IMG/VR virus record: IMGVR_UViG_3300047274_000273
Coordinates: 119,217 to 137,994 of that record
Length of the DNA: 18,778 nucleotides
Direction: 5' to 3' (one strand)
Source: a virus
Lineage: Duplodnaviria; Heunggongvirae; Uroviricota; Caudoviricetes
The translations under genes were made by a program, and so were the position numbers. Positions 9,076 through 17,980 of this stretch are shown here, piece after piece. The notes beneath the pieces were generated by a model. That model searched no databases. It was given only the letters and a program-made list of their open reading frames with translations, and was not told where the DNA came from. The first letter of the stretch is position 1. Every line of letters starts with the position of its first letter.

Positions 9076-9705
9076 ATGCTTCCCAAAAGAATTTTTTTTA
9101 CAGGTGTTCCTGGTAGTCGTTGGAGTGGTCTGGCCCAACATATCGAATCAAATGTTCCAGGGATGAATATTTCAGATAGAAACGACGAAAGAGAATTCGC
9201 TCATTGCGTAGCACACTCAGGGATGCCTGCAGGACACAAAGGTGCATATTTCGGAACAGGCATGGAATATGCGGCCAAGTTAGAAGATGCAGATTATCTA
9301 GACAGTCCCTGGAAAACTCCAGGTGGTACTAGAATTGTAAAGAGCCACGAGTGGGCTTTCCAGCTCGATCGTATCAAAGAGATGTATCCGGAAGATTGGA
9401 TCGTCTTGGTATATCGTCCCGACGAAGTCAGCAGTGCTTGGTGGCATCAGATCGGTGGATTCACTATCAAGTATCCAAACTATGATCATTATGTAGACAG
9501 CATCGGGATGAATCACAATATCAGACTGATGAACATCGAAATCCTCAAGTATGCCAAGAAGCACGATGCTAGATGGTATCATATCGGTCAGAAATTTTTC
9601 AAGGAAGTATTCGGAGTCGATGTACCTTGGTTTCCAGACTTCTTTCACGATGTGATGGTAACCGCTATCCCTAATAGCACCAAATGTGGCGAAAAAGCCA
9701 CATAA
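9076..9705 (+). CDS. Sulfotransferase/P-loop-like hypothetical protein
   Basis: N-terminal IFFTGVPGSRWSG resembles the sulfotransferase G-x-P-R-S-G-T loop; also IVKSHEW and IVLVYRP. Confidence 0.6.
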   Translation: MLPKRIFFTGVPGSRWSGLAQHIESNVPGMNISDRNDEREFAHCVAHSGMPAGHKGAYFGTGMEYAAKLEDADYLDSPWKTPGGTRIVKSHEWAFQLDRIKEMYPEDWIVLVYRPDEVSSAWWHQIGGFTIKYPNYDHYVDSIGMNHNIRLMNIEILKYAKKHDARWYHIGQKFFKEVFGVDVPWFPDFFHDVMVTAIPNSTKCGEKAT

Positions 9706-9721
9706 ACTGCTGATATTTTTC

Positions 9722-9750
9722 TTGACATATAAATAAACTGACTATACAAT
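9722..9750 (+). promoter_or_regulatory. sigma70-type promoter P1 with an embedded T4-late box
   Basis: TTGACA-17-TACAAT; TATAAATA at 9728-9735. Confidence 0.75.
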
Positions 9751-9808
9751 AGATAGACTTGTTAGAGATGCAATAACCCTTAGGGTTAGTCAATTTTACC
9801 AAAAGTGG

Positions 9809-9837
9809 TTGACAGCAGAACTAATTAAGTATATAAT
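9809..9837 (+). promoter_or_regulatory. sigma70-type promoter P2 (perfect consensus)
   Basis: TTGACA-17-TATAAT. Confidence 0.9.
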
Positions 9838-9888
9838 AGACACATGAGTTAGGAATTCTCCTAACAATTTAAGGAAACAGAGAAGCAA

Positions 9889-10029
9889 ATGAAAGCAACG
9901 TCGTTACATAGACAAGTTAAACACATAGCCCAGTTGGGAGGCTTTATGCCCTCTTATTGGTCAGTATGTGAGATTAGTCTATCTAATGATCGTACACCAG
10001 AATCGGGGTCCGCGGAGATCATGAGTTAA
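9889..10029 (+). CDS. Putative attenuator leader peptide (46 aa, all 20 amino acids)
   Basis: MKATSLHRQVKHIAQLGGFMPSYWSVCEISLSNDRTPESGSAEIMS*; AAGGA at 9871-9875; below the ORF-track length cutoff. Confidence 0.7.
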   Translation: MKATSLHRQVKHIAQLGGFMPSYWSVCEISLSNDRTPESGSAEIMS

Positions 10030-10061
10030 CCGTAAAGTAAACTCAAACTTCAAAGGACCCC
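10005..10061 (+). promoter_or_regulatory. Putative antiterminator hairpin
   Basis: GGGGTCC 10005-11 / GGACCCC 10055-61; GGAG 10014-17 / CTTC 10048-51; TGAGTT 10022-27 / AACTCA 10040-45. Confidence 0.7.
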
Positions 10062-10088
10062 AGGATTAAAAACCCTGGGGTTTTTGTT
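10057..10088 (+). terminator. Intrinsic terminator (attenuator)
   Basis: ACCCCAGG / CCTGGGGT 8-bp stem followed by TTTTGTTT. Confidence 0.85.
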
Positions 10089-10103
10089 TGTTAAAAGGAA
10101 AAA

Positions 10104-10286
10104 ATGGAACACAAAGAAATTGATTACACTAAATTGAACAAAAAAATCGTTGAACAGGCTTACGTGTCTGCTTATACTCTAAGTGATGAACAGACACGCA
10201 AACTTATTCAAGATAAGTTTGATCGAGCCCAAAAGCTCAGAGATGCCTTAGAGAAGAGTAATCTTCTCTGGCATACTGATCGATAA
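10104..10286 (+). CDS. Hypothetical protein, first gene after the attenuator
   Basis: AAAGGA SD; 60 aa. Confidence 0.7.
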   Translation: MEHKEIDYTKLNKKIVEQAYVSAYTLSDEQTRKLIQDKFDRAQKLRDALEKSNLLWHTDR

Positions 10287-10533
10287 GGTTCAGCGGTAAA
10301 GTGCGATAGGGAACGCGACCCTGCAGGGCACTCTAAACATCCTGCTACTAATGTGGGCGGCCTACCTGATGGTAAGTCTAGGGCGATAACCTAGATGTGT
10401 AAAACGGTAGCGTATTAAAGTATATTGCCGAACAGTCAAATGGCGCAAGCCGATGAGCAGTATACTTTAATACACACTCTTCTTTCGCCTTACGACGGCG
10501 TCAAAAAGCATAGCGGAGAGTGTTACAAATCAT

Positions 10534-10622
10534 GGAGCTTGATCCCTACGGCGGACTGTAAATCCGTTGCCTTAATATGTAGGGTGGCTGGCAATTAGGT
10601 TCGATTCCTTCAGGCTCCACCA
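10534..10622 (+). tRNA. Atypical tRNA-Tyr(GTA) lacking a normal D-arm
   Basis: 7-bp acceptor, GCGGA-CTGTAAA-TCCGT arm, TTCGATT loop and ACCA end; only 10 nt in place of the D-arm; 3-bp T-stem. Confidence 0.65.
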
Positions 10623-10631
10623 AAATTTAGG

Positions 10632-10660
10632 TTGACATTTTTTGAGTTTGGTGCTATACT
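10632..10660 (+). promoter_or_regulatory. sigma70-type promoter with extended -10
   Basis: TTGACA-17-TATACT with TGn. Confidence 0.75.
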
Positions 10661-10693
10661 AATAACACTGAGAAACTTAGAAAAGGTTCCAAA

Positions 10694-10888
10694 ATGCAAG
10701 TTCATCGAGTATTTGTTGAAGTTGGTTATTATGCAGGCGGTGGCACCGATGGTGCTTTTATCTCCGAAACTATTAACCATTTCGAAACTACAGTTAATGC
10801 TAATTCTTCAGGTGACGCTGTTAGGATTGCACAGGCTCAATTCGGTGGTCAAGAACGTTGTCGCGTAACCTATCGCGGCACGATGTAA
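10694..10888 (+). CDS. Hypothetical protein
   Basis: 64-aa ORF downstream of the promoter; overlaps no tRNA. Confidence 0.7.
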   Translation: MQVHRVFVEVGYYAGGGTDGAFISETINHFETTVNANSSGDAVRIAQAQFGGQERCRVTYRGTM

Positions 10889-10893
10889 GATTT

Positions 10894-10968
10894 GGTCTCA
10901 AAGTGTTCATGGACGCACACGACACTGTCACTGTCGAAGAAGGGGATCGTTACCCCTTGGGACCGCCA
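10894..10968 (+). tRNA. tRNA-Asp(GTC)
   Basis: Cloverleaf; non-canonical T-loop ATCGTTA; CCA. Confidence 0.85.
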
Positions 10969-10977
10969 AAGTTTTAT

Positions 10978-11052
10978 TCCAGAGTAGCACAGCGGCAGTG
11001 CAGTTGACTGTTAATCAATTGGTCGGTGGTTCGATCCCACCCTCTGGAGCCA
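10978..11052 (+). tRNA. tRNA-Asn(GTT)
   Basis: Cloverleaf, CTGTTAA loop, CCA. Confidence 0.93.
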
Positions 11053-11057
11053 GTTTT

Positions 11058-11132
11058 GCACCGTTCGTCTATCGGTTAGGACACCCGCCTTTCACGCAGG
11101 TAAGAGGAGTTCGATTCTCCTACGGTGTACCA
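11058..11132 (+). tRNA. tRNA-Glu(TTC)
   Basis: Cloverleaf, CTTTCAC loop, C.A mismatch in the anticodon stem. Confidence 0.9.
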
Positions 11133-11140
11133 GTTTTATT

Positions 11141-11216
11141 GCGGGAGTAGCTCAGTTGGTAGAGCGCAACCTTGCCAAGGTTGAGGTCGCGAGTTCGAGA
11201 CTCGTCTCCCGCTCCA
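11141..11216 (+). tRNA. tRNA-Gly(GCC)
   Basis: Canonical cloverleaf. Confidence 0.97.
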
Positions 11217-11218
11217 TT

Positions 11219-11292
11219 ATCTCGGTGGTGTAATGGCAGCATAGCAGTCTCCAAAACTGTTTGTGGGGGTTCGAGTCCCTCCCGGGATGCCA
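11219..11292 (+). tRNA. tRNA-Trp(CCA)
   Basis: Cloverleaf, CTCCAAA loop. Confidence 0.92.
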
Positions 11293-11304
11293 ATAATTCA
11301 ATAT

Positions 11305-11382
11305 GCACAGGTGGCAGAGAGGCCCAATGCAAGAGTCTGCAAAACTCTAAAACCGTCGGTTCGAATCCGACCCTGTGCTCCA
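11305..11382 (+). tRNA. tRNA-Cys(GCA)
   Basis: Cloverleaf, CTGCAAA loop, U73. Confidence 0.93.
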
Positions 11383-11389
11383 AGTTTAT

Positions 11390-11489
11390 GCCTCTGTAGC
11401 TTAATTGGTAAAGACGCGAGCTTATACCTCGCCAAAGCACCGGCCAGATAAGCCGGCGTGTGCAGGTTCGAGTCCTGCCAGAGGCACCA
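11390..11489 (+). tRNA. tRNA-Ile(TAT) with an extra GAT-loop arm
   Basis: GCGAG-CTTATAC-CTCGC arm plus CCGGC-CAGATAA-GCCGG arm; 100 nt. Confidence 0.8.
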
Positions 11490-11494
11490 TATAT

Positions 11495-11573
11495 ACCCCT
11501 ATGGACAAATTGGTAAAGTCGTCTCTCTCAAAAGGAGAAGTTGTTCTCCGTTCGAATCGGAGTAGGGGTACCA
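11495..11573 (+). tRNA. tRNA-Leu(CAA), short variable region
   Basis: CTCAAAA loop; 7-nt variable region. Confidence 0.88.
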
Positions 11574-11579
11574 AGTTAA

Positions 11580-11671
11580 GGAAGCGTGGCAGAGTCTGGT
11601 TTATTGCACCGGTCTTGAAAACCGACGTCTTAGAAATAGGGCCGTGAGTTCGAATCTCACCGCTTCCACCA
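11580..11671 (+). tRNA. tRNA-Ser(TGA)
   Basis: CTTGAAA loop; long V-arm. Confidence 0.93.
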
Positions 11672-11686
11672 TATAAGGAGATAGTC

Positions 11687-11881
11687 ATGGAAGTCAGCGC
11701 AGTTACCTATTACGGTTGGAGAGACGGTTTCCAAACAGTAGAAAAACGCACTACCTACGATTATCCCAAGAGCAATGATGTTACCGTAGTCGAACATAGA
11801 TCCTATCAGATTACGCTGTATACTGATAAAGGAACTTTAGAAACACATAATCGTGGTAGCAACATTGACCAGATGGTATAA
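11687..11881 (+). CDS. Hypothetical protein
   Basis: AAGGAG SD; fills the gap between two tRNAs. Confidence 0.75.
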   Translation: MEVSAVTYYGWRDGFQTVEKRTTYDYPKSNDVTVVEHRSYQITLYTDKGTLETHNRGSNIDQMV

Positions 11882-11882
11882 T

Positions 11883-11958
11883 GCCTGTTTAGCTCAATCG
11901 GGAGAGCATCGTCTTGATAAGGCGGAGGTACCAGGATCGAAACCTGGAACAGGCACCA
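11883..11958 (+). tRNA. tRNA-Ile(GAT)
   Basis: TTGATAA loop; T-loop ATCGAAA. Confidence 0.9.
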
Positions 11959-12024
11959 TTATAAGGAGAAATCAAAATGGGGCATTGGCAGTTGTTATTT
12001 TGGTTATCATAGGTTTAATTTGGA

Positions 12025-12053
12025 TTGACAAACATCTAAAGTGAAGTTACAAT
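12025..12053 (+). promoter_or_regulatory. sigma70-type promoter
   Basis: TTGACA-17-TACAAT. Confidence 0.75.
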
Positions 12054-12079
12054 ACTAAAACTGAAAAAAGGAGAATGGC

Positions 12080-12100
12080 ATGAAACGTGGTAAACGTTAG
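12080..12100 (+). other. Mini-ORF MKRGKR followed by a hairpin
   Basis: AAGGAG SD 6 nt before ATG; hairpin at about 12100-12138. Confidence 0.45.
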
Positions 12101-12159
12101 TGTCGCCCTGGTACTCCGTATGGTCCAGGGTTGGCACAGTAAATCATCTAGTACGACGA

Positions 12160-12235
12160 CCCTGTGTAGCGTTAATGGTAGCGCACTTGACTCTTAATCA
12201 ATGAGGTGTGAGTTCAAATCTCACTGCAGGGACCA
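12160..12235 (+). tRNA. tRNA-Lys(CTT)
   Basis: CTCTTAA loop. Confidence 0.9.
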
Positions 12236-12238
12236 TAT

Positions 12239-12313
12239 GGGAGTATAGCTCAGCGGTAGAGCAGCGGACTTTTAATCCGTTGGTCCAGGGTTCAAATCCC
12301 TGTGCTCCTACCA
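12239..12313 (+). tRNA. tRNA-Lys(TTT)
   Basis: CTTTTAA loop. Confidence 0.95.
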
Positions 12314-12392
12314 TATAAAAACACACCGGTCTACCGCCACCGAGAGGTAGTTAAAGACAATGACAAGCAACAGCCAGTGTGTTTCTATATGG
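12311..12392 (+). repeat. Stem-closed RNA cassette, copy A
   Basis: CCATATAAAAACACAC ... GTGTGTTTCTATATGG inverted repeat. Confidence 0.75.
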
Positions 12393-12404
12393 TAAAGAAT
12401 TCAA

Positions 12405-13290
12405 GGGCAGCTTAATGTCCTGTAGGCGGTTCGCCGCTTACGAAGAATAACTCCTGTGAGGGAGCCAACAGATGTATGCCTACATAAGTCTGCCAGCGAT
12501 GGTTCATTTAAGCAAGCCTGCTCACTCCGGTGACGGAGCGTTCACTGATAAGACCGGTGGATGTAACAGCAAAGCTGATGTAGTGGAAAGAATGTTTGCT
12601 CAAGCGCCGCAAGGTAACGCAAGCAGATAGAGAGTAACAGGTGGTGCTGACCTCACTACAAAACCAATCAGTTAGTTGGTATGAGAAAGGGTAGTGTTCG
12701 GTTCCGAAGAGTCGCGTCTAAGGGGTCGAGCGCAGTTTGAGTGGTTAGTGGTAACGTAGCAATACGTTGACGCCGATCGCGAAGAACGACTGAGTAGCTC
12801 GCGAGGCAAAAGGTACGTGGTGTGTTGTATTCAGTAGAGCAAAACTTTATTGAGCAACAGAGGCAGCACATCGCAGTAGGTTCAGTTATAGCACAATTGG
12901 TAGTGCATCTCCCCTGTTAAGGAGACGGCTGAAGGTTCAACTCCTTCTAACGTTCAAAAAAGCAAAGACTGCCTCGGTCATATGTGAAAAGCATCTAATA
13001 CTTAGGGCGCAAGCCAACTAAGTCAGACGTAGCTCGCAAGGTGAAATCTGTTTATGCTGGAAGTTTCGTAAGGTGTTAGCGCACCTGAATAGCTCGCAAG
13101 GTTAACGGAATAGATAGCGTAGAATAGCATATGACGACAAGACTACTGCCTGTCTTTAAAAACGGCGATGCTGATAGTGGACATAGGTACCGCAAGGGCT
13201 TATGTGGATGTCTAGAGAAGCTGTGCTCGCAAGGTGCAGTATAATGCTAGAGGCACTATTAGCTAACGTGTAATCTCAGCGTTAGCACCA
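12405..13290 (+). ncRNA. GOLLD-like giant structured ncRNA (boundaries approximate)
   Basis: About 890 nt with no credible CDS inside a phage tRNA array; many GCAA/GNRA-capped hairpins (GCTCGCAAGGT three times); long-range GCAGTAG/CTACTGC pairing; 3' hairpin GCTAACG-TGTAATCTCAG-CGTTAGC resembling recalled GOLLD 3' ends. Confidence 0.75.
12885..12951 (+). other. tRNA-Asn-like element embedded in the GOLLD-like RNA
   Basis: D-arm GCAC-AATTGGTA-GTGC, TCTCC-CCTGTTAA-GGAGA arm, GAAGG-TTCAACT-CCTTC T-arm; 4-bp acceptor; no CCA. Confidence 0.75.
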
Positions 13291-13397
13291 TATAAAAACA
13301 CATTCAAGGCAAAGTACAAGCCTAGCAGAAGGTGCAGCCACGCCCGGCAACGAGCGTCGGTGGACGGTGCTACTCCGTCGAGTGTGTTTCTATATGG
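13288..13397 (+). repeat. Stem-closed RNA cassette, copy B
   Basis: CCATATAAAAACACATTC ... GAGTGTGTTTCTATATGG. Confidence 0.75.
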
Positions 13398-13470
13398 TAA
13401 TGTAGCATAATGGTAGTGCAACACCTTCATACGGTGCGCTGTGAAAGTTCGACTCTTTCCATTACCACCA
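13396..13470 (+). tRNA. tRNA(CAT), elongator Met or Ile2
   Basis: TTCATAC loop; G1-C72 paired; identity cannot be resolved by eye. Confidence 0.85.
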
Positions 13471-13475
13471 TATTT

Positions 13476-13550
13476 GGGGGCAGCAGAGGGCTGCGGTGGA
13501 TCCTTGCAAGATTCATGACTACAAGGGTTCGATACCCTGGGCCTCCACCA
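13476..13550 (+). tRNA. Atypical tRNA-Ala(TGC) with a miniature D-arm
   Basis: G3.U70, A73, CTTGCAA loop; D region GCAG-AGGG-CTGC. Confidence 0.65.
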
Positions 13551-13556
13551 ATTTTC

Positions 13557-13630
13557 GCCCTTTTAGTTTAATGGTAGAGCACCGGTTTTGTAATCCGGGA
13601 ATGGTGGTTCGATTCCATCAAGGGGCACCA
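13557..13630 (+). tRNA. tRNA-Thr(TGT)
   Basis: TTTGTAA loop; U.U at 31-39. Confidence 0.88.
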
Positions 13631-13633
13631 AGT

Positions 13634-13852
13634 TTTGTTGTAGTGTCAGCAAGAGAAAGTCACGCTATAAAGGTTTCTTCGAAGGACTGATATAGTAGAA
13701 GGTGGCGGGTTCGATGCCCGACGGATCGGAAGATCCGGGTACATGGTGGCGTACTATCTGGTCCGGTATCCCAAGTAACGTACCGAGTCCTGCCCGGGCT
13801 AGTTAATCCAGGTGAATGGTGCCAATAACGATGGTGGCACATCTACAACAAA
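13634..13852 (+). ncRNA. Unidentified structured ncRNA candidate
   Basis: 10-bp closing stem TTTGTTGTAG/CTACAACAAA and several internal hairpins. Confidence 0.6.
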
Positions 13853-13863
13853 TTTATTTCTGA

Positions 13864-13937
13864 TCGGGTGTAGTGTAATGGTAACACCACAGACTTTGAC
13901 TCTGTTATTCTAGGTTCGAGCCCTAGCACCCGTGCCA
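13864..13937 (+). tRNA. tRNA-Gln(TTG)
   Basis: CTTTGAC loop; U1.U72. Confidence 0.9.
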
Positions 13938-13938
13938 T

Positions 13939-14012
13939 GCTCCTATAGTTAAATGGAAGAACACATCCTTGGTAAGGATGCGATACAAGTTCGATTCTTG
14001 TTAGGAGCACCA
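13939..14012 (+). tRNA. tRNA-Thr(GGT)
   Basis: TTGGTAA loop. Confidence 0.92.
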
Positions 14013-14017
14013 TATAT

Positions 14018-14092
14018 CGGCCTGTAGCTCAGTGGAAGAGTTCTGGTCTTCGAAACCAGCTGTCGGGAGTTCGAATCTCTCCAGGCCGGCCA
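14018..14092 (+). tRNA. tRNA-Arg(TCG)
   Basis: CTTCGAA loop. Confidence 0.9.
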
Positions 14093-14109
14093 TATCCTAG
14101 GAGATTGTT

Positions 14110-14316
14110 ATGAAAGCAACAATGTTTAAAAATCGTTTTAATAATGAGCATTTTGTCTGTGACGATATCCGTGTGACCGAGAATATCGACGGTGTCGAGT
14201 ATCTTATCGTACATCGACCCAATGAACATCGTCCGCTTAAAATGCGTCGCGATGCATTAGAGAAGATCAATACCCCAGTAACTCAGCGGAATAAGAGTAC
14301 TACGCTACGAACGTAG
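14110..14316 (+). CDS. Hypothetical protein whose 3' end overlaps tRNA-Arg(ACG)
   Basis: AGGAG SD; the stop TAG lies in the anticodon stem. Confidence 0.7.
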   Translation: MKATMFKNRFNNEHFVCDDIRVTENIDGVEYLIVHRPNEHRPLKMRRDALEKINTPVTQRNKSTTLRT

Positions 14317-14349
14317 GAGTCGGAGGTTCGAGTCCTTCCTGGGGTGCCA
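14272..14349 (+). tRNA. tRNA-Arg(ACG)
   Basis: CTACG-CTACGAA-CGTAG arm. Confidence 0.92.
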
Positions 14350-14355
14350 AACAAT

Positions 14356-14429
14356 ATCGCGTTGGACTTCTGGGAGGTCACTAGGCTTTCAACCTAGATA
14401 GGCGGGTTCGATCCCCGTACGCGATACCA
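14356..14429 (+). tRNA. tRNA-Glu(TTC), second copy
   Basis: CTTTCAA loop; acceptor stem unrelated to the first copy. Confidence 0.85.
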
Positions 14430-14434
14430 ACAAT

Positions 14435-14508
14435 GGTGTTGTTAGTGTAATGGCTGCACGGCTGTCTGTGAAACAGTAAGGGAGGGTTCGATTCCCCACT
14501 TCACCCCA
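14435..14508 (+). tRNA. tRNA-His(GTG), irregular
   Basis: G-1:C73; CTGTGAA loop; two U.U pairs in the acceptor stem; short T-stem. Confidence 0.75.
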
Positions 14509-14513
14509 TGTAT

Positions 14514-14587
14514 AGTTCCTTAGTTCAATGGTAGAACGATACTTTGACATGGTATAGACACAAGTTCAATTCTTGTAGGAACTACCA
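14514..14587 (+). tRNA. tRNA-Val(GAC)
   Basis: TTGACAT loop. Confidence 0.88.
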
Positions 14588-14678
14588 TATGTAAACACAT
14601 TAGTGAAAGAACGGTCGTAGACCTTAGGGCTTAGCCTGCGGCATTGTCCTTCGACGGTGGCTAGTGTGTTTGCATATG
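14586..14678 (+). repeat. Stem-closed RNA cassette, copy C
   Basis: CATATGTAAACACATTAGT ... GCTAGTGTGTTTGCATATG, 19-bp stem. Confidence 0.7.
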
Positions 14679-14683
14679 TTAAT

Positions 14684-14759
14684 GCCGCTTTAGCTGATGT
14701 GGTCATAGCACCGGTTTGAAGCACCGAGGAACTAGGTTCGATCCCTAGAGGCGGCACCA
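14684..14759 (+). tRNA. tRNA-Phe(GAA)
   Basis: TTGAAGC loop (G37, C38). Confidence 0.85.
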
Positions 14760-14831
14760 GAGTACTCCTTATTGTGTACTGTGCGTTTCATGATAAGGGA
14801 AGGGAGAAGGCACAGTTCTCCCGAGAGATAT

Positions 14832-14908
14832 GCGGATGTGACGGAATTGGTATACGTATTAGACTTAAAATCTAAGTACTGAGGGTTCGAGTCCCTCCAT
14901 CCGTACCA
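14832..14908 (+). tRNA. tRNA-Leu(TAA), short variable region
   Basis: CTTAAAA loop; 5-nt variable region. Confidence 0.88.
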
Positions 14909-14909
14909 T

Positions 14910-14986
14910 GCCCAGATGGCGGAATTGGTATACGCACTATGTTGAGGTCGTAGGCGCTGCGGGTTCGAGTCCCGCTCTGGGTACCA
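14910..14986 (+). tRNA. tRNA-Leu(GAG), short variable region
   Basis: TTGAGGT loop; 5-nt variable region. Confidence 0.88.
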
Positions 14987-14993
14987 AAAAATT

Positions 14994-15065
14994 GCCTCTG
15001 CTGATGGAGCAGTGCCAGGTCTTCTAAACCAGGTTATGGGAGTTCGAATCTCTCCAGAGGCGCCA
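14994..15065 (+). tRNA. Atypical tRNA-Arg(TCT) with a reduced D-arm
   Basis: Perfect 7-bp acceptor; CTTCTAA loop; D region CTG-ATGGAG-CAG; A.A in the anticodon stem. Confidence 0.65.
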
Positions 15066-15073
15066 TATAAAGG

Positions 15074-15102
15074 TTGACAGTAACAAACAAAGGCTATATA
15101 AT
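15074..15102 (+). promoter_or_regulatory. sigma70-type promoter (perfect consensus)
   Basis: TTGACA-17-TATAAT. Confidence 0.88.
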
Positions 15103-15138
15103 ATACACTTGTTCGTTAAAAATTCAAAGTAGTTAATT

Positions 15139-15219
15139 GCCCCGGTGGTGGAATTGGTAGACACGCTGGTCTTAGAAGCCAGTCTTCGGGTACGAGTTCG
15201 AGTCTCGTCTGGGGCACCA
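15139..15219 (+). tRNA. tRNA-Leu(TAG)
   Basis: CTTAGAA loop; 9-nt variable region. Confidence 0.92.
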
Positions 15220-15225
15220 TTAAAA

Positions 15226-15374
15226 AATAACATTGACAGGTATCGTCTATGGACGCATAGACTTACGAAGAATAGGGCCATCTTACTCTTCTGAAAAAAC
15301 TGCGGGCAATGGCTTATGAGGAGAATCGAACTCCACTCAGAAATTCGCTCCATCCCATAGGGTGCAATGTTATT
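15226..15374 (+). ncRNA. Unidentified structured ncRNA candidate
   Basis: AATAACATTG/CAATGTTATT closing stem; GTCTATG-GACG-CATAGAC hairpin. Confidence 0.5.
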
Positions 15375-15392
15375 CTTTAATGGTAAGTTTTT

Positions 15393-15471
15393 CCGGGTGT
15401 AGCTTAGTCTGGCTTAAAGCGCCTGCTTTGGGAGCAGGAGATCGTGAGTTCGAATCCCACTTCCCGGACCA
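15393..15471 (+). tRNA. tRNA-Pro(TGG)
   Basis: CCTGC-TTTGGGA-GCAGG arm. Confidence 0.92.
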
Positions 15472-15476
15472 ATTTT

Positions 15477-15552
15477 GCATCCTTAACTCAGTTGGTAGAG
15501 TTCCGCCTTTACACGGCGGCTGTCGGGAGTTCGAGTCTCTCAGGATGCACCA
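15477..15552 (+). tRNA. tRNA-Val(TAC)
   Basis: TTTACAC loop. Confidence 0.95.
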
Positions 15553-15560
15553 TATAGTAC

Positions 15561-15654
15561 GGTGAGTTGGATGAGCTGGTTTAAATCACTTTCCTGCTAA
15601 GAAAGAGTTCGATGTAAAGTCGGGCCGTGGGTTCGAATCCCACACTCACCACCA
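15561..15654 (+). tRNA. tRNA-Ser(GCT)
   Basis: CTGCTAA loop; long V-arm. Confidence 0.92.
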
Positions 15655-15674
15655 ATTTTAAAAAGGAAAAATAA

Positions 15675-15854
15675 ATGCTTAAACCCGGTCCAAACTATAG
15701 AATGAGTAAACAAGGTAAAAGATTTGCTGCTCTCATCATTGATTCTCATCAGCGAGGTGAATTTCTTCGCTCGACTGTTCAGGCAGAATTAGCAGCGGCT
15801 ATTCAACCCAAGCGTGAAAAACCACGCCGTGATGTTCCACAAGGTAATCAGTAA
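15675..15854 (+). CDS. Small basic hypothetical protein (59 aa; not in the ORF track)
   Basis: AAGGA SD; MLKPGPNYRMSKQGKRFAALIIDSHQRGEFLRSTVQAELAAAIQPKREKPRRDVPQGNQ. Confidence 0.7.
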   Translation: MLKPGPNYRMSKQGKRFAALIIDSHQRGEFLRSTVQAELAAAIQPKREKPRRDVPQGNQ

Positions 15855-15856
15855 TC

Positions 15857-16114
15857 ATGGTTGCACGTAATGATATCACGGGCGATGCAATTCAAACCAA
15901 AAGTGCATCGGAAGCATATCGAGATAATTACGATTTAATTTTTAGGAAAAATAATATGCAGGTAAGAGTAGCAGAAGAAGGTAAAAAGATTGGAACTTGT
16001 GGTTGTGGTCGTTCGCCCACCGGCGATTGTATCGGTTGGCACGGTCTCAGCGAAACTGTCTATCAAGAAAAACTTCAGAAGTATCTTGAAGAACAGAAGG
16101 TCGCTGATAAGTAA
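15857..16114 (+). CDS. Small protein with a CDGSH-like Fe-S motif
   Basis: CGCGRSPTGDCIGWH; a second SD and ATG at about 15957. Confidence 0.7.
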   Translation: MVARNDITGDAIQTKSASEAYRDNYDLIFRKNNMQVRVAEEGKKIGTCGCGRSPTGDCIGWHGLSETVYQEKLQKYLEEQKVADK

Positions 16115-16120
16115 AAAGTT

Positions 16121-16196
16121 GGGGGTATAGCTCAGCTGGGAGAGCAGTAGCTTTGCAAGCTAAAGGTCGTCGGTTCGATCCCGTCTACCTCCACCA
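16121..16196 (+). tRNA. tRNA-Ala(TGC)
   Basis: Canonical; G3.U70. Confidence 0.95.
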
Positions 16197-16201
16197 AATT
16201 T

Positions 16202-16275
16202 GCTCTGTTAGTTAAATGGTATAACAGTTGCCTTGTAAGCATCAGTCGTTGGTTCGATTCCATCACGGAGCACCA
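16202..16275 (+). tRNA. tRNA-Thr(TGT), second copy
   Basis: CTTGTAA loop; U.U mismatches in the anticodon and T stems. Confidence 0.88.
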
Positions 16276-16291
16276 GTATTACCAAAATGTC

Positions 16292-16319
16292 TTGACAAAG
16301 ACGTTAATGAGTGTATAAT
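16292..16319 (+). promoter_or_regulatory. sigma70-type promoter
   Basis: TTGACA-16-TATAAT. Confidence 0.7.
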
Positions 16320-16609
16320 ATTTTTGTTACGGTAGAAATACTGTAACCGGTGAAGCAGAAGGTAGATGAGGATAGACGTTGTATGGCTTCATGCCGTACA
16401 GACTAATTCTGGCAAAGACGCTTGAAACGTCTCCGTGCTTGGGTGATCCGATTTTATAGACTGTCATTTGCTGATCGGAAATATTCAGGCCACTGTCGCC
16501 TGTGTATTGCACGTTGTCTAGACCGACGACTTCGAACAATAGGTCTTGTCAATTGTCCGGTCTATTACTTGACCTTTTGCCGACCCGTCAACAACATCAA
16601 GGAAGCTAC

Positions 16610-16855
16610 ATGGCTAGGATTTCAGCGGAAGAAGCGGCAGCAGCGATAGGTAACAGATTTGACTTGGTGTTAGTAGCCAGTCAACGAGCGAGAGAGATTA
16701 AGAATGGGTCTAGGCCTAGGATAGCTGATCAGAACTCTACACCCTGTGTAGCAGCTCTTAAAGAAATCGAAGAAGGCAAGTATACCTACAACGACTATTT
16801 GGTCACAGTACAACGAAAGAAAAAAGGACACAGAGATGAATATTTCCCTACGTAA
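16610..16855 (+). CDS. rpoZ: RNA polymerase omega subunit
   Basis: AAGGAAG SD before ATG 16610; MARIS...GNRFDLVLVASQRAREI..G..P...ALKEIEEG matches the omega signature. Confidence 0.9.
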   Translation: MARISAEEAAAAIGNRFDLVLVASQRAREIKNGSRPRIADQNSTPCVAALKEIEEGKYTYNDYLVTVQRKKKGHRDEYFPT

Positions 16856-17408
16856 AGCAAACGCAATCCAAAACAACATCAATGACGCTATCCGTAGTGT
16901 CAAGATCGAATCTAGCATCGAACTCAACGAGTTTCAGGATGTGGCTGTAGAGCTGCAAAAGGCCAACGATCTGGTCATCGCCAACGATGCCCGTAGGCAG
17001 AAACTGTTGTTGGCTCTGTACAACATCAGAGGCCTAGTCGGCACAGCCAATGCCAGCTGCGGTATCGATCTTAGCTTGGCCAAGGCTGCGTTTATCGACA
17101 AGCGTATCGCTCAGCTCGAAGAATTGGCATCGTTAAAGGCAGTCACATCATTAGATGTGATCAAAGGTAAACTTGAGAAAATCAAAAGCCTTAAAGACGA
17201 AGCTCGTAGCCGTATCTATGGCTACGGTGACACCGTGAGCACCACAGTGGTCAGCCAAAGTCAGATCGATCAGGCCAAGGCAGAGATTCTAAATCTCAAG
17301 AAGCAGAAGCAAAAGCTCAACGACGAAGTGCTTGAGCTTAACATCAAAACTGAGATTCCTCTCAGCGATGAAACAGTAGCTCTTCTACAAGCAGAAGGCC
17401 TACTGTAA
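16836..17408 (+). CDS. Hypothetical coiled-coil protein
   Basis: 190-aa helical ORF overlapping the end of rpoZ. Confidence 0.8.
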   Translation: MNISLRKANAIQNNINDAIRSVKIESSIELNEFQDVAVELQKANDLVIANDARRQKLLLALYNIRGLVGTANASCGIDLSLAKAAFIDKRIAQLEELASLKAVTSLDVIKGKLEKIKSLKDEARSRIYGYGDTVSTTVVSQSQIDQAKAEILNLKKQKQKLNDEVLELNIKTEIPLSDETVALLQAEGLL

Positions 17409-17410
17409 CA

Positions 17411-17614
17411 GACCCCGGGGTCCCTTCCTCGTTATTAAAGGGGGTAATTGGCTTCACCAGAATGCCAGGGTACAAACGGTAACGACCCCAAGGCCCTCTT
17501 TAGGGGCGACTTGAGACACCGTGGCGGCAGAAGTAGAACTGACGACAAAGATGCAAATACTAACGGACAGGGTAACAACTCAGTCTAGGGCGGAACAGGG
17601 AACCGTAGCTAGAC
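17411..17614 (+). ncRNA. Unidentified structured ncRNA candidate
   Basis: About 200 nt, non-coding; GGGGTC/GACCCC and GTCTAG/CTAGAC stems. Confidence 0.45.
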
Positions 17615-17727
17615 ACTTTTAATGAGTAGATTGACGAGATTTCGACACTCCGGCAAGAGTAACATTATCAAGTCGATTTGCCGATCGAGGGGGCCTATAA
17701 TTTCCCTTCAGTCTACTCCTTAAAAGT
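17615..17727 (+). ncRNA. Stem-closed, pseudoknot-capable RNA candidate
   Basis: 19-bp closing stem with one mismatch; ACTC-CGGCAA-GAGT loop complementary to TTGCCG. Confidence 0.5.
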
Positions 17728-17736
17728 AAAGTCTAT

Positions 17737-17810
17737 CGCGGGATAGAGAAACGGTAACTCAAGAGTCTCATAAGCTCTAGATCCTGGTTCGATTCCAGGT
17801 CCCGCAACCA
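17737..17810 (+). tRNA. tRNA-fMet-like (CAT)
   Basis: C1.A72 mismatch and A11-U24; CTCATAA loop; lacks the three G-C anticodon-stem pairs. Confidence 0.85.
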
Positions 17811-17814
17811 TTCT

Positions 17815-17889
17815 CTCGCTATAGTTCAATGGACAGAACGGTTCTCTCCTAAAGAACAAATCCAGGTTCGACTCCTGGTGGCGAGGCCA
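17815..17889 (+). tRNA. tRNA-Arg(CCT)
   Basis: CTCCTAA loop. Confidence 0.92.
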
Positions 17890-17906
17890 GAAGTAAATAG
17901 TTTTAT

Positions 17907-17980
17907 GCGGGGTTCGTATAGTGGTAATACCTCAGCCTTCCAAGCTGATGCGGAGAGTTCGATTCTCTTACCCCGCTCCA
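17907..17980 (+). tRNA. tRNA-Gly(TCC)
   Basis: CTTCCAA loop; U73. Confidence 0.95.

Follow-up and report, generated by a model that had tools for sequence, protein, structure and literature searches.

A phage leader peptide with all 20 amino acids as part of a candidate transcription attenuator upstream of a tRNA array

In the classical trp, his, thr, leu, pheA, and ilv leaders, one to three cognate amino acids occur in runs, and it is the biosynthesis of these amino acids that the leaders control. T-boxes, which reside in the leaders of aminoacyl-tRNA synthetase and amino-acid genes, bind one specific tRNA directly and have no open reading frame (ORF). Phage tRNA arrays, for their part, are usually viewed as constitutive codon-usage or anti-defence cargo, and to our knowledge the regulation of the large ones is essentially unknown. 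Here we describe an element located ahead of such an array in an 18,778-nucleotide (nt) stretch of viral DNA (positions 119,217 to 137,994 of IMG/VR record IMGVR_UViG_3300047274_000273), which we refer to as the window. We estimate at about 70% the probability that this element is a ribosome-mediated transcription attenuator that senses a shortage of any aminoacyl-tRNA and thereby gates a 60-amino-acid (60-aa) ORF, a structured RNA, and tRNAs. The window is the final part (18.8 kb) of an IMG/VR virus contig of 138 kb, which CheckV rates as 39% complete and which is therefore a fragment of an uncultured giant phage.

The whiB7 (wblC) attenuator of mycobacteria and other Actinobacteria shows the same order of parts as the phage element, with an upstream ORF (uORF) followed by an antiterminator and then by an intrinsic terminator (PMC10274678). 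Stalling of the ribosome on the uORF leads to read-through, as demonstrated for whiB7 (PMC10274678) and as proposed for the phage leader. The amino-acid content of the whiB7 uORF sets which starvations cause antitermination: the uORF of M. smegmatis has all amino acids but Cys, pathways for 18 of the 20 amino acids activate it, and variants of this uORF without Trp or without His lose the matching response (PMC10274678). The whiB7 uORF is enriched in Ala and often incomplete, that of M. tuberculosis being devoid of Trp (PMC10274678). There is, however, no sequence relationship between the two systems, and whereas whiB7 attenuation controls a cellular transcription factor, the phage element would control the tRNAs of a virus. 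Moreover, the conserved trait of the phage leader is completeness itself, and Ala averages 2.6 per leader. The phage element is therefore an analogue of whiB7 rather than a member of that group.

Like the classical leader attenuators, the phage element comprises a promoter, a short leader ORF, and mutually exclusive antiterminator and terminator structures, with the stop codon placed such that a terminating ribosome would block the antiterminator. Unlike them, it contains one to three codons of every amino acid without any runs, and no pause or anti-antiterminator helix of the 1:2 type was detected in the leader. With the T-box it would share a cis-acting terminator/antiterminator switch that reports tRNA charging, but an Rfam search found no T-box fold, and sensing would proceed through the ribosome and for all amino acids at once. 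No match to the Trp, His, Thr, or Leu leaders or to the T-box was obtained with Rfam, either permissively (E ≤ 10) over positions 9700 to 10900 or at the gathering score across the window; the permissive search returned only sub-threshold chance matches over the element. Full-text literature searching did not turn up any account of an attenuator for phage tRNA arrays or of a leader with all 20 amino acids. Within ribosome-mediated attenuation, what is new here is the selection for a complete amino-acid set and the proposed control of virus tRNA genes.

A preliminary description of the locus, made from the DNA letters alone, had noted a perfect sigma-70 promoter followed by a 46-codon leader ORF that contains all 20 amino acids by codon 34 and uses 39 distinct codons, 35 of them within the first 38. 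The promoter indeed matches the consensus at 12 of 12 positions, and all of these counts proved correct. Uniform codon usage would yield 32.48 distinct codons in 46, and 46-codon windows taken from the phage's own ORFs of at least 120 aa contained 28.9 ± 2.6, with none of 5,383 reaching 39; the leader thus lies above the entire background distribution. In the same ORFs, all 20 amino acids were found in 1.8% of the 46-aa windows and in 0.09% of the 34-aa windows.

Relatives of the element were collected in three ways. A first set of 14 loci was reached through the genes that flank the element, i.e., the 60-aa ORF downstream (P0002) and a 209-aa ORF upstream (P0003). A DNA pattern derived from the terminator region then yielded at least 120 further stretches and gave, among the matches listed, 133 elements with 112 distinct leader peptides. 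Finally, an independent DNA anchor within the leader added 32 new peptides. The two independent DNA anchors together recovered more than 130 further elements, and overall the layout is present on about 150 other viral contigs, with 144 distinct leader peptides among the matches listed. Promoter, ORF, hairpin, and terminator are all found in 14/14 of the neighbour-gene loci, where the ORF has 46 to 51 codons; across about 140 distinct variants its length ranges from 42 to 52 codons.

Searches of GenBank phages by megablast and blastn gave no match for the region or for two divergent relatives, and no cultured phage carrying the element was found in GenBank at blastn sensitivity. With tblastn, the 209-aa upstream protein matched a single record, that of a marine single-cell virus. 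Pfam and PHROGs returned nothing usable for the leader peptide or for the products of the 60-aa and 209-aa ORFs, and the 60-aa ORF matched only "hypothetical protein" clusters of the ESM Atlas, below a useful score. We also observed a complete family member (L193:5640-5925), with a 48-aa leader containing all 20 amino acids, on a 6.2-kb contig binned with a Polynucleobacter metagenome-assembled genome (MAG), which hints weakly at freshwater Betaproteobacteria as hosts. Besides this member, a scan of genome contigs gave one chance match in Corynebacterium.

All 20 amino acids were present in 117 of the 144 distinct leader peptides, compared to 2 to 5% expected by chance. In the neighbour-gene set, 13 of 14 peptides were complete and the remaining one lacked only Phe; among the listed matches to the terminator pattern, 89 of 112 were complete and 18 lacked a single residue; and in the set obtained with the leader anchor, completeness was seen in 28 of the 32 new peptides. 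Independent, identically distributed draws from the family's own pooled composition were complete in only 3 to 5% of cases at leader length. When the peptides were grouped by complete linkage at ≥40% identity, 15 of the 20 resulting clusters had a majority of complete members. Even relatives only 30 to 50% identical to the window peptide were complete in 84 to 85% of cases, versus 4 to 5% under neutral replacement.

This completeness was maintained despite extensive positional turnover. The rare residues Cys, His, Tyr, Trp, and Lys shift position within the leader but are almost never lost, Cys alone being found in at least 15 alignment columns. When such a residue was missing from its commonest column, the share of peptides that had it elsewhere was 95% for Cys, 100% for His, 98% each for Tyr and Lys, and 86% for Trp, and when it did occupy that column, a second copy was seen in 14%, 16%, 26%, 36%, and 16% for Cys, His, Tyr, Lys, and Trp, respectively. 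Per-residue counts were strongly under-dispersed; for Cys, with a mean of 1.04 per leader, the zero class amounted to 5%, versus 36% under a Poisson distribution. The leaders contain no amino-acid runs, and each residue occurs in about one to three copies, apart from Ser with about six. The full set, furthermore, is already encoded upstream of the 5' arm of the antiterminator in 75 of 87 complete leaders, compared to 22 ± 4 after shuffling, and in 11 of 15 cluster representatives, compared to 3.4.

At the level of codons the picture is less clear. The leaders of relatives use 29 to 42 distinct codons, and given the peptide, their synonymous diversity exceeded that expected from the codon usage of this genome by a mean z of +1.1, with positive means in 17 of 20 clusters; RNA-level constraints could contribute to this excess. 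The locus had originally been proposed to be pan-codon. On the sequence comparisons we consider a pan-amino-acid property of the leader to be solid, but a pan-codon property to be weakly supported, with the synonymous excess reaching a z of only about +1. Upstream of the hairpin (positions 9889 to 10004 and the equivalent region of relatives), the leaders strongly favour NNT over NNC in two-codon boxes (0.80, versus 0.59 in the genome), and overall codon preference is slightly under the genome mean in 92% of leaders. Codons read by wobble might sharpen the sensitivity to tRNA shortage.

The 3' part of the element contains two structures that compete for the same nucleotides. The hairpin recognized in the preliminary description is present, with an outer helix formed by GGGGTCC (10005-10011) and GGACCCC (10055-10061) and with two inner helices (−24.6 kcal/mol, z = −4.9), and so is its overlap with the 5' arm of the terminator. 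The terminator stem consists of 7 bp, CCCCAGG (10058-10064) paired with CCTGGGG (10074-10080), and is followed by T5 at 10081-10085 (−12.5 kcal/mol); the four nucleotides at 10058-10061 (CCCC) belong to both helices. A simple terminator scan missed the terminator of the window since its loop has 9 nt and the scan permits 3 to 8. In the predicted equilibrium fold the long hairpin wins, and the terminator forms once the 5' half of the hairpin is removed or occluded, as it would be under a ribosome. Over 108 distinct 3' regions, mean energies were −23.8 kcal/mol for the antiterminator and −11.5 kcal/mol for the terminator; the antiterminator was the more stable of the two in all 108, and its outer helix was closed in 104 of the 108 minimum-energy folds. 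The leader stop codon, which is TAA in 102 of 107 members, falls inside the hairpin: in 94 of 106 members it lies 21 to 25 nt past the first base of the 5' arm, in the upper hairpin and ahead of the 3' arm.

Both helices covary in the relatives at the shared CCCY segment. The first search pattern had fixed most helix bases but left the first base of the antiterminator 5' arm free. Toward this base, the variable position of CCCY forms G-C (57) or A-U (66) pairs with few exceptions; toward the 3' arm of the terminator it forms C-G, U-A, or U-G pairs, and C opposite A was never seen. An alignment of 43 sequences had 99% and 100% of cells paired in the two helices, and at the shared column 17 and 12 cells were changed on both sides, values that collapsed once the partner column was slid. 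Divergent members recovered with the second anchor alter both helices in a compensatory fashion, with CCCTGG/CCAGGG, CCCCTGG/CCAGGGG, and CCCTGGA/TCCAGGG in the terminator and GGGTTCTTA/TAAGAACCC in the antiterminator. We also observed a natural deletion variant (L183:7871-8000) that lacks the whole antiterminator and whose leader runs into a short CCAGGG/CCCTGG hairpin with a U-tract, which may represent a constitutively terminating allele.

Taken together, the layout on about 150 contigs, the completeness of the leaders, the covariation, the stop codon inside the antiterminator, and the arrays downstream lend comparative support to the core attenuator model as originally proposed. According to this model, transcription would start from the consensus promoter and a ribosome would translate the 46-codon leader. 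If all codons are decoded promptly, the ribosome would enter the 5' half of the 10005-10061 hairpin and stop at the internal TAA, so that the hairpin is blocked, the freed CCCC joins the terminator (10058-10080 plus the U-tract), and RNA polymerase stops. A ribosome that stalls within the first 34 to 39 codons, where every one of the 20 amino acids is represented, or the lack of any ribosome, would let the stronger hairpin (−24 versus −12 kcal/mol) form first and sequester the 5' arm of the terminator. RNA polymerase would then read through the 60-aa ORF and the structured RNA and on into the tRNA genes. The element would thus follow a trp-type logic minus the amino-acid bias. The data show the architecture, its conservation, the covariation, and the selection for amino-acid completeness, whereas we infer that the leader is translated, that transcription and translation are coupled, and in which direction and how strongly the switch responds. 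The phage probably makes more tRNA whenever ribosomes fail to decode some codon, and a shortage of any charged tRNA that raises phage tRNA output would constitute a negative feedback. Such feedback is possible since the 32 phage anticodons of the window, including a putative TAT, can read every codon of the leader if four-way wobble at U34 is allowed, which is needed at five leader codon positions (GCC, CCC, TCT twice, and TCC).

What lies downstream was surveyed in 86 unique loci, which were chosen for having a tRNA and have 1.5 kb or more of DNA beyond the element. In each of the 86, the element is followed by a tRNA array on the same strand. The first tRNA, most often tRNA-Tyr(GTA), lies at a median distance of 434 nt, and the median tRNA count within 3 kb is 13. 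In 52 of the 86 loci the stretch from the terminator to the first tRNA contains no promoter-like site, and 66 of the 86 have an ORF of 40 aa or longer, comparable to P0002, whose start is no more than 45 nt from the terminator. The original proposal that the leader gates entry to the tRNA array thus agrees with the array that always follows, but it has to be modified in that the 60-aa ORF and the structured RNA come first. One could still argue that the same switch senses global translation status, i.e., ribosome availability, host shut-off, toxins or antibiotics that target the ribosome, or how tightly transcription and translation are coupled, and that its link to tRNAs is only positional. 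The architecture would react to any slowing of the lead ribosome, the general sensor whiB7 does respond to many translation stresses (PMC10274678), and a weak or distant Shine-Dalgarno sequence would make ribosome loading the limiting and hence the sensed step. Such a sensor, however, has no need for every amino acid, and the turnover-tolerant retention of all 20, including a single Cys, Trp, and His, points to sensing at the level of codons, just as the association with tRNA arrays in 86/86 loci fits a tRNA-supply signal. We therefore consider this explanation unlikely, although it fares better than the other alternatives.

The leader might also be an ordinary gene, in a promoter-to-terminator unit of about 245 nt, for a small protein of about 46 aa that has its own function, with the hairpin acting only as a 3'-end stabilizer or as part of a compound terminator. 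The ORF is certainly conserved, and the peptide motifs IAxxGGFMPSYW and NDRTPE recur in the family. Nevertheless, the peptide sequence itself is weakly constrained: within clusters its pN/pS is 0.66, and codon positions 1, 2, and 3 are equally variable (1.21, 1.19, and 1.27 bits). The C terminus is even read in two frames, since subfamilies decode the conserved GGGTCC arm as either ...GS... or ...RV... while the RNA is conserved. The relatives upstream of tRNA arrays accordingly show the combination that had been anticipated for the uORF, a conserved frame with poorly constrained residues. The peptide has no Pfam or PHROG matches, a folded 46-aa protein offers no rationale for completeness that is kept through positional turnover, and the hairpin and the terminator overlap by 4 nt and covary as alternatives. 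We regard a small-protein gene as slightly less probable still than a sensor of global translation. Since completeness survives positional turnover, weak peptide constraint, and the two-frame reading of the arm, selection acts on the presence of each amino acid and not on its position, and on what is decoded rather than on what is made.

It is very improbable that the element is a non-coding small RNA of about 245 nt with an incidental ORF. In favour of this reading, the promoter-to-terminator transcript has an unusually stable fold (−81 kcal/mol, z = −5.9), Shine-Dalgarno motifs in proximal position are weak, and one motif is conserved at the nucleotide level including third codon positions. 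Against it, the leader frame is open in 107/107 elements compared to 6 for frame +1 and 0 for frame +2, the ATG, in-frame indels, and the TAA in the hairpin loop are all conserved, an all-20 content is meaningful only if the ORF is decoded, no consensus structure was found for the coding part, and Rfam gave no match. The full-length fold pairs the AUG region with the U-tract, a pairing between A-rich and U-rich segments that may be spurious. A hydrophobic toxin or membrane peptide was ruled out by the polar character of the leader peptide, and a precursor of a peptide made on ribosomes and post-translationally modified (RiPP) was ruled out by the lack of modifying enzymes nearby and of conserved residues. 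A tmRNA or tRNA-like RNA at the element was likewise ruled out, as neither ARAGORN nor Rfam detected one there.

Several observations weigh against the attenuator model or limit its reach. To begin with, 27 of the 144 leaders (19%) lack one or more amino acids, and the avoidance of the ORF tail by rare residues is partly forced, because the RNA helix dictates the codons of the tail. The spacing toward the antiterminator is tight as well. In the window, the full set is reached at codon 34, and the sampling had been proposed to end about one ribosome footprint ahead of the antiterminator. In most relatives, however, the last-arriving residue, usually the Glu of the TPE motif, ends only 7 to 9 nt before the arm, less than a full footprint. 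Within the ribosomal mRNA channel, RNA can stay in duplex form from about +11 to +13, counted from the P site, which puts this spacing at the edge of what would be left free by a stalled ribosome, and the sensing of Glu would be marginal. The codons for N-D-R-T-P-E (9985-10001) are nearly invariant at the nucleotide level throughout the family, third positions included, which suggests a role at the RNA level or in ribosome pausing immediately ahead of the antiterminator. A Shine-Dalgarno sequence 3 to 10 nt upstream of the start codon is present in about 7% of leaders, compared to about half of the phage's large ORFs. Many leaders carry AAGGA 12 to 18 nt upstream, but with a normally spaced motif mostly missing, the efficiency of leader translation is uncertain. 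In the leader's coding part, whose individual folds have a mean z of −1.9, RNAalifold detected neither a consensus helix nor a conserved structure of the pause or anti-antiterminator kind. The support from covariation is limited to few columns plus a handful of divergent members, since the search patterns fixed most helix positions. Finally, 34 of the 86 relatives have a promoter-like site between the terminator and the first tRNA, and in the window such sites are found at 10632, 12025, 15074, and 16292, where they had already been noted; control of the array by the attenuator would consequently be only partial, as had been expected.

An extension of the attenuator model, which we put forward tentatively and at somewhat less than even odds, is that the element serves as a virus-encoded, closed-loop tRNA homeostat and counter-defence sensor that detects the loss of any tRNA species and transcribes replacement tRNAs. 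Such loss could result from host anticodon nucleases, from host shut-off, or from degradation of the host tRNA pool, and it would be detectable for any tRNA species because a single ORF contains one to few codons per amino acid. The small protein and the structured RNA would be made alongside the tRNAs, and output would be throttled when decoding recovers. If the attenuator model is true, this would be the first attenuator designed for sensing decoding in general instead of a single pathway, and also the first demonstrated link in a virus from decoding failure directly to tRNA gene expression. It would bear on whether phages sense depletion of the host tRNA pool, and it predicts that removal of one amino acid from the leader would blind the switch to that amino acid alone. 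With a size of about 300 nt the switch is portable, and it could be turned into a compact reporter that reads out tRNA charging or the activity of anticodon nucleases.

Table 1. Positions of the proposed switch, its promoters, and the units that follow it in the window
Feature	Position	Strand	Remarks
Upstream tandem promoter P1	9722..9750	+	TTGACA-17-TACAAT; spacer (TATAAATAAAC...) conserved in relatives
Small hairpin and T-rich run between P1 and P2	9774..9788	+	
Promoter P2, sigma-70 consensus	9809..9837	+	TTGACA-17-TATAAT, 12/12; kept ahead of leader in relatives
5'-untranslated-region hairpin, transcript start	9848..9865	+	
Leader ORF, 46 sense codons	9889..10029	+	All 20 amino acids by codon 34; stop TAA 10027-10029
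Near-invariant motif, codons N-D-R-T-P-E	9985..10001	+	Just upstream of antiterminator
Antiterminator hairpin (predicted)	10005..10061	+	Outer helix 10005-10011 with 10055-10061; encloses last leader codons and stop
Intrinsic terminator (predicted)	10058..10090	+	Stem 10058-10064 with 10074-10080, then U-tract; first 4 nt are the antiterminator 3' arm
P0002, 60-aa ORF, proposed first gated gene	10104..10286	+	Canonical ribosome-binding site
Conserved structured RNA, spacer between P0002 and first tRNA (245 nt)	10287..10532	+	
Aberrant tRNA-Tyr(GTA)-like gene	10533..10619	+	Missed by ARAGORN; Rfam sub-threshold, tRNA-Sec model, 28.4 bits
Same-strand tRNA array	10894..17980	+	34 genes (ARAGORN), plus Rfam extras and embedded GOLLD RNA

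Upstream of the leader promoter, P1 lies at a distance of 87 nt on the 5' side, and the region from 9722 to 9788, comprising P1 together with the hairpin and T-rich run, could be an operator or a short-transcript unit. Downstream of the switch, an alignment of eight sequences of the spacer RNA yields at least four helices with 43 predicted pairs, and 16 of these pairs show compensatory changes. Rfam gave no match over 10287-10532, and from its position the RNA would be co-regulated by the attenuator. In relatives the array begins with a normal tRNA-Tyr at the offset that the aberrant gene at 10533-10619 occupies in the window. Within the array, a 97-nt Rfam tRNA match at 11390-11486 (57.6 bits) was not called by ARAGORN, and a GOLLD RNA at 12817-13282 matches the full-length model with 216 bits and contains an internal tRNA-like module at 12885-12951.

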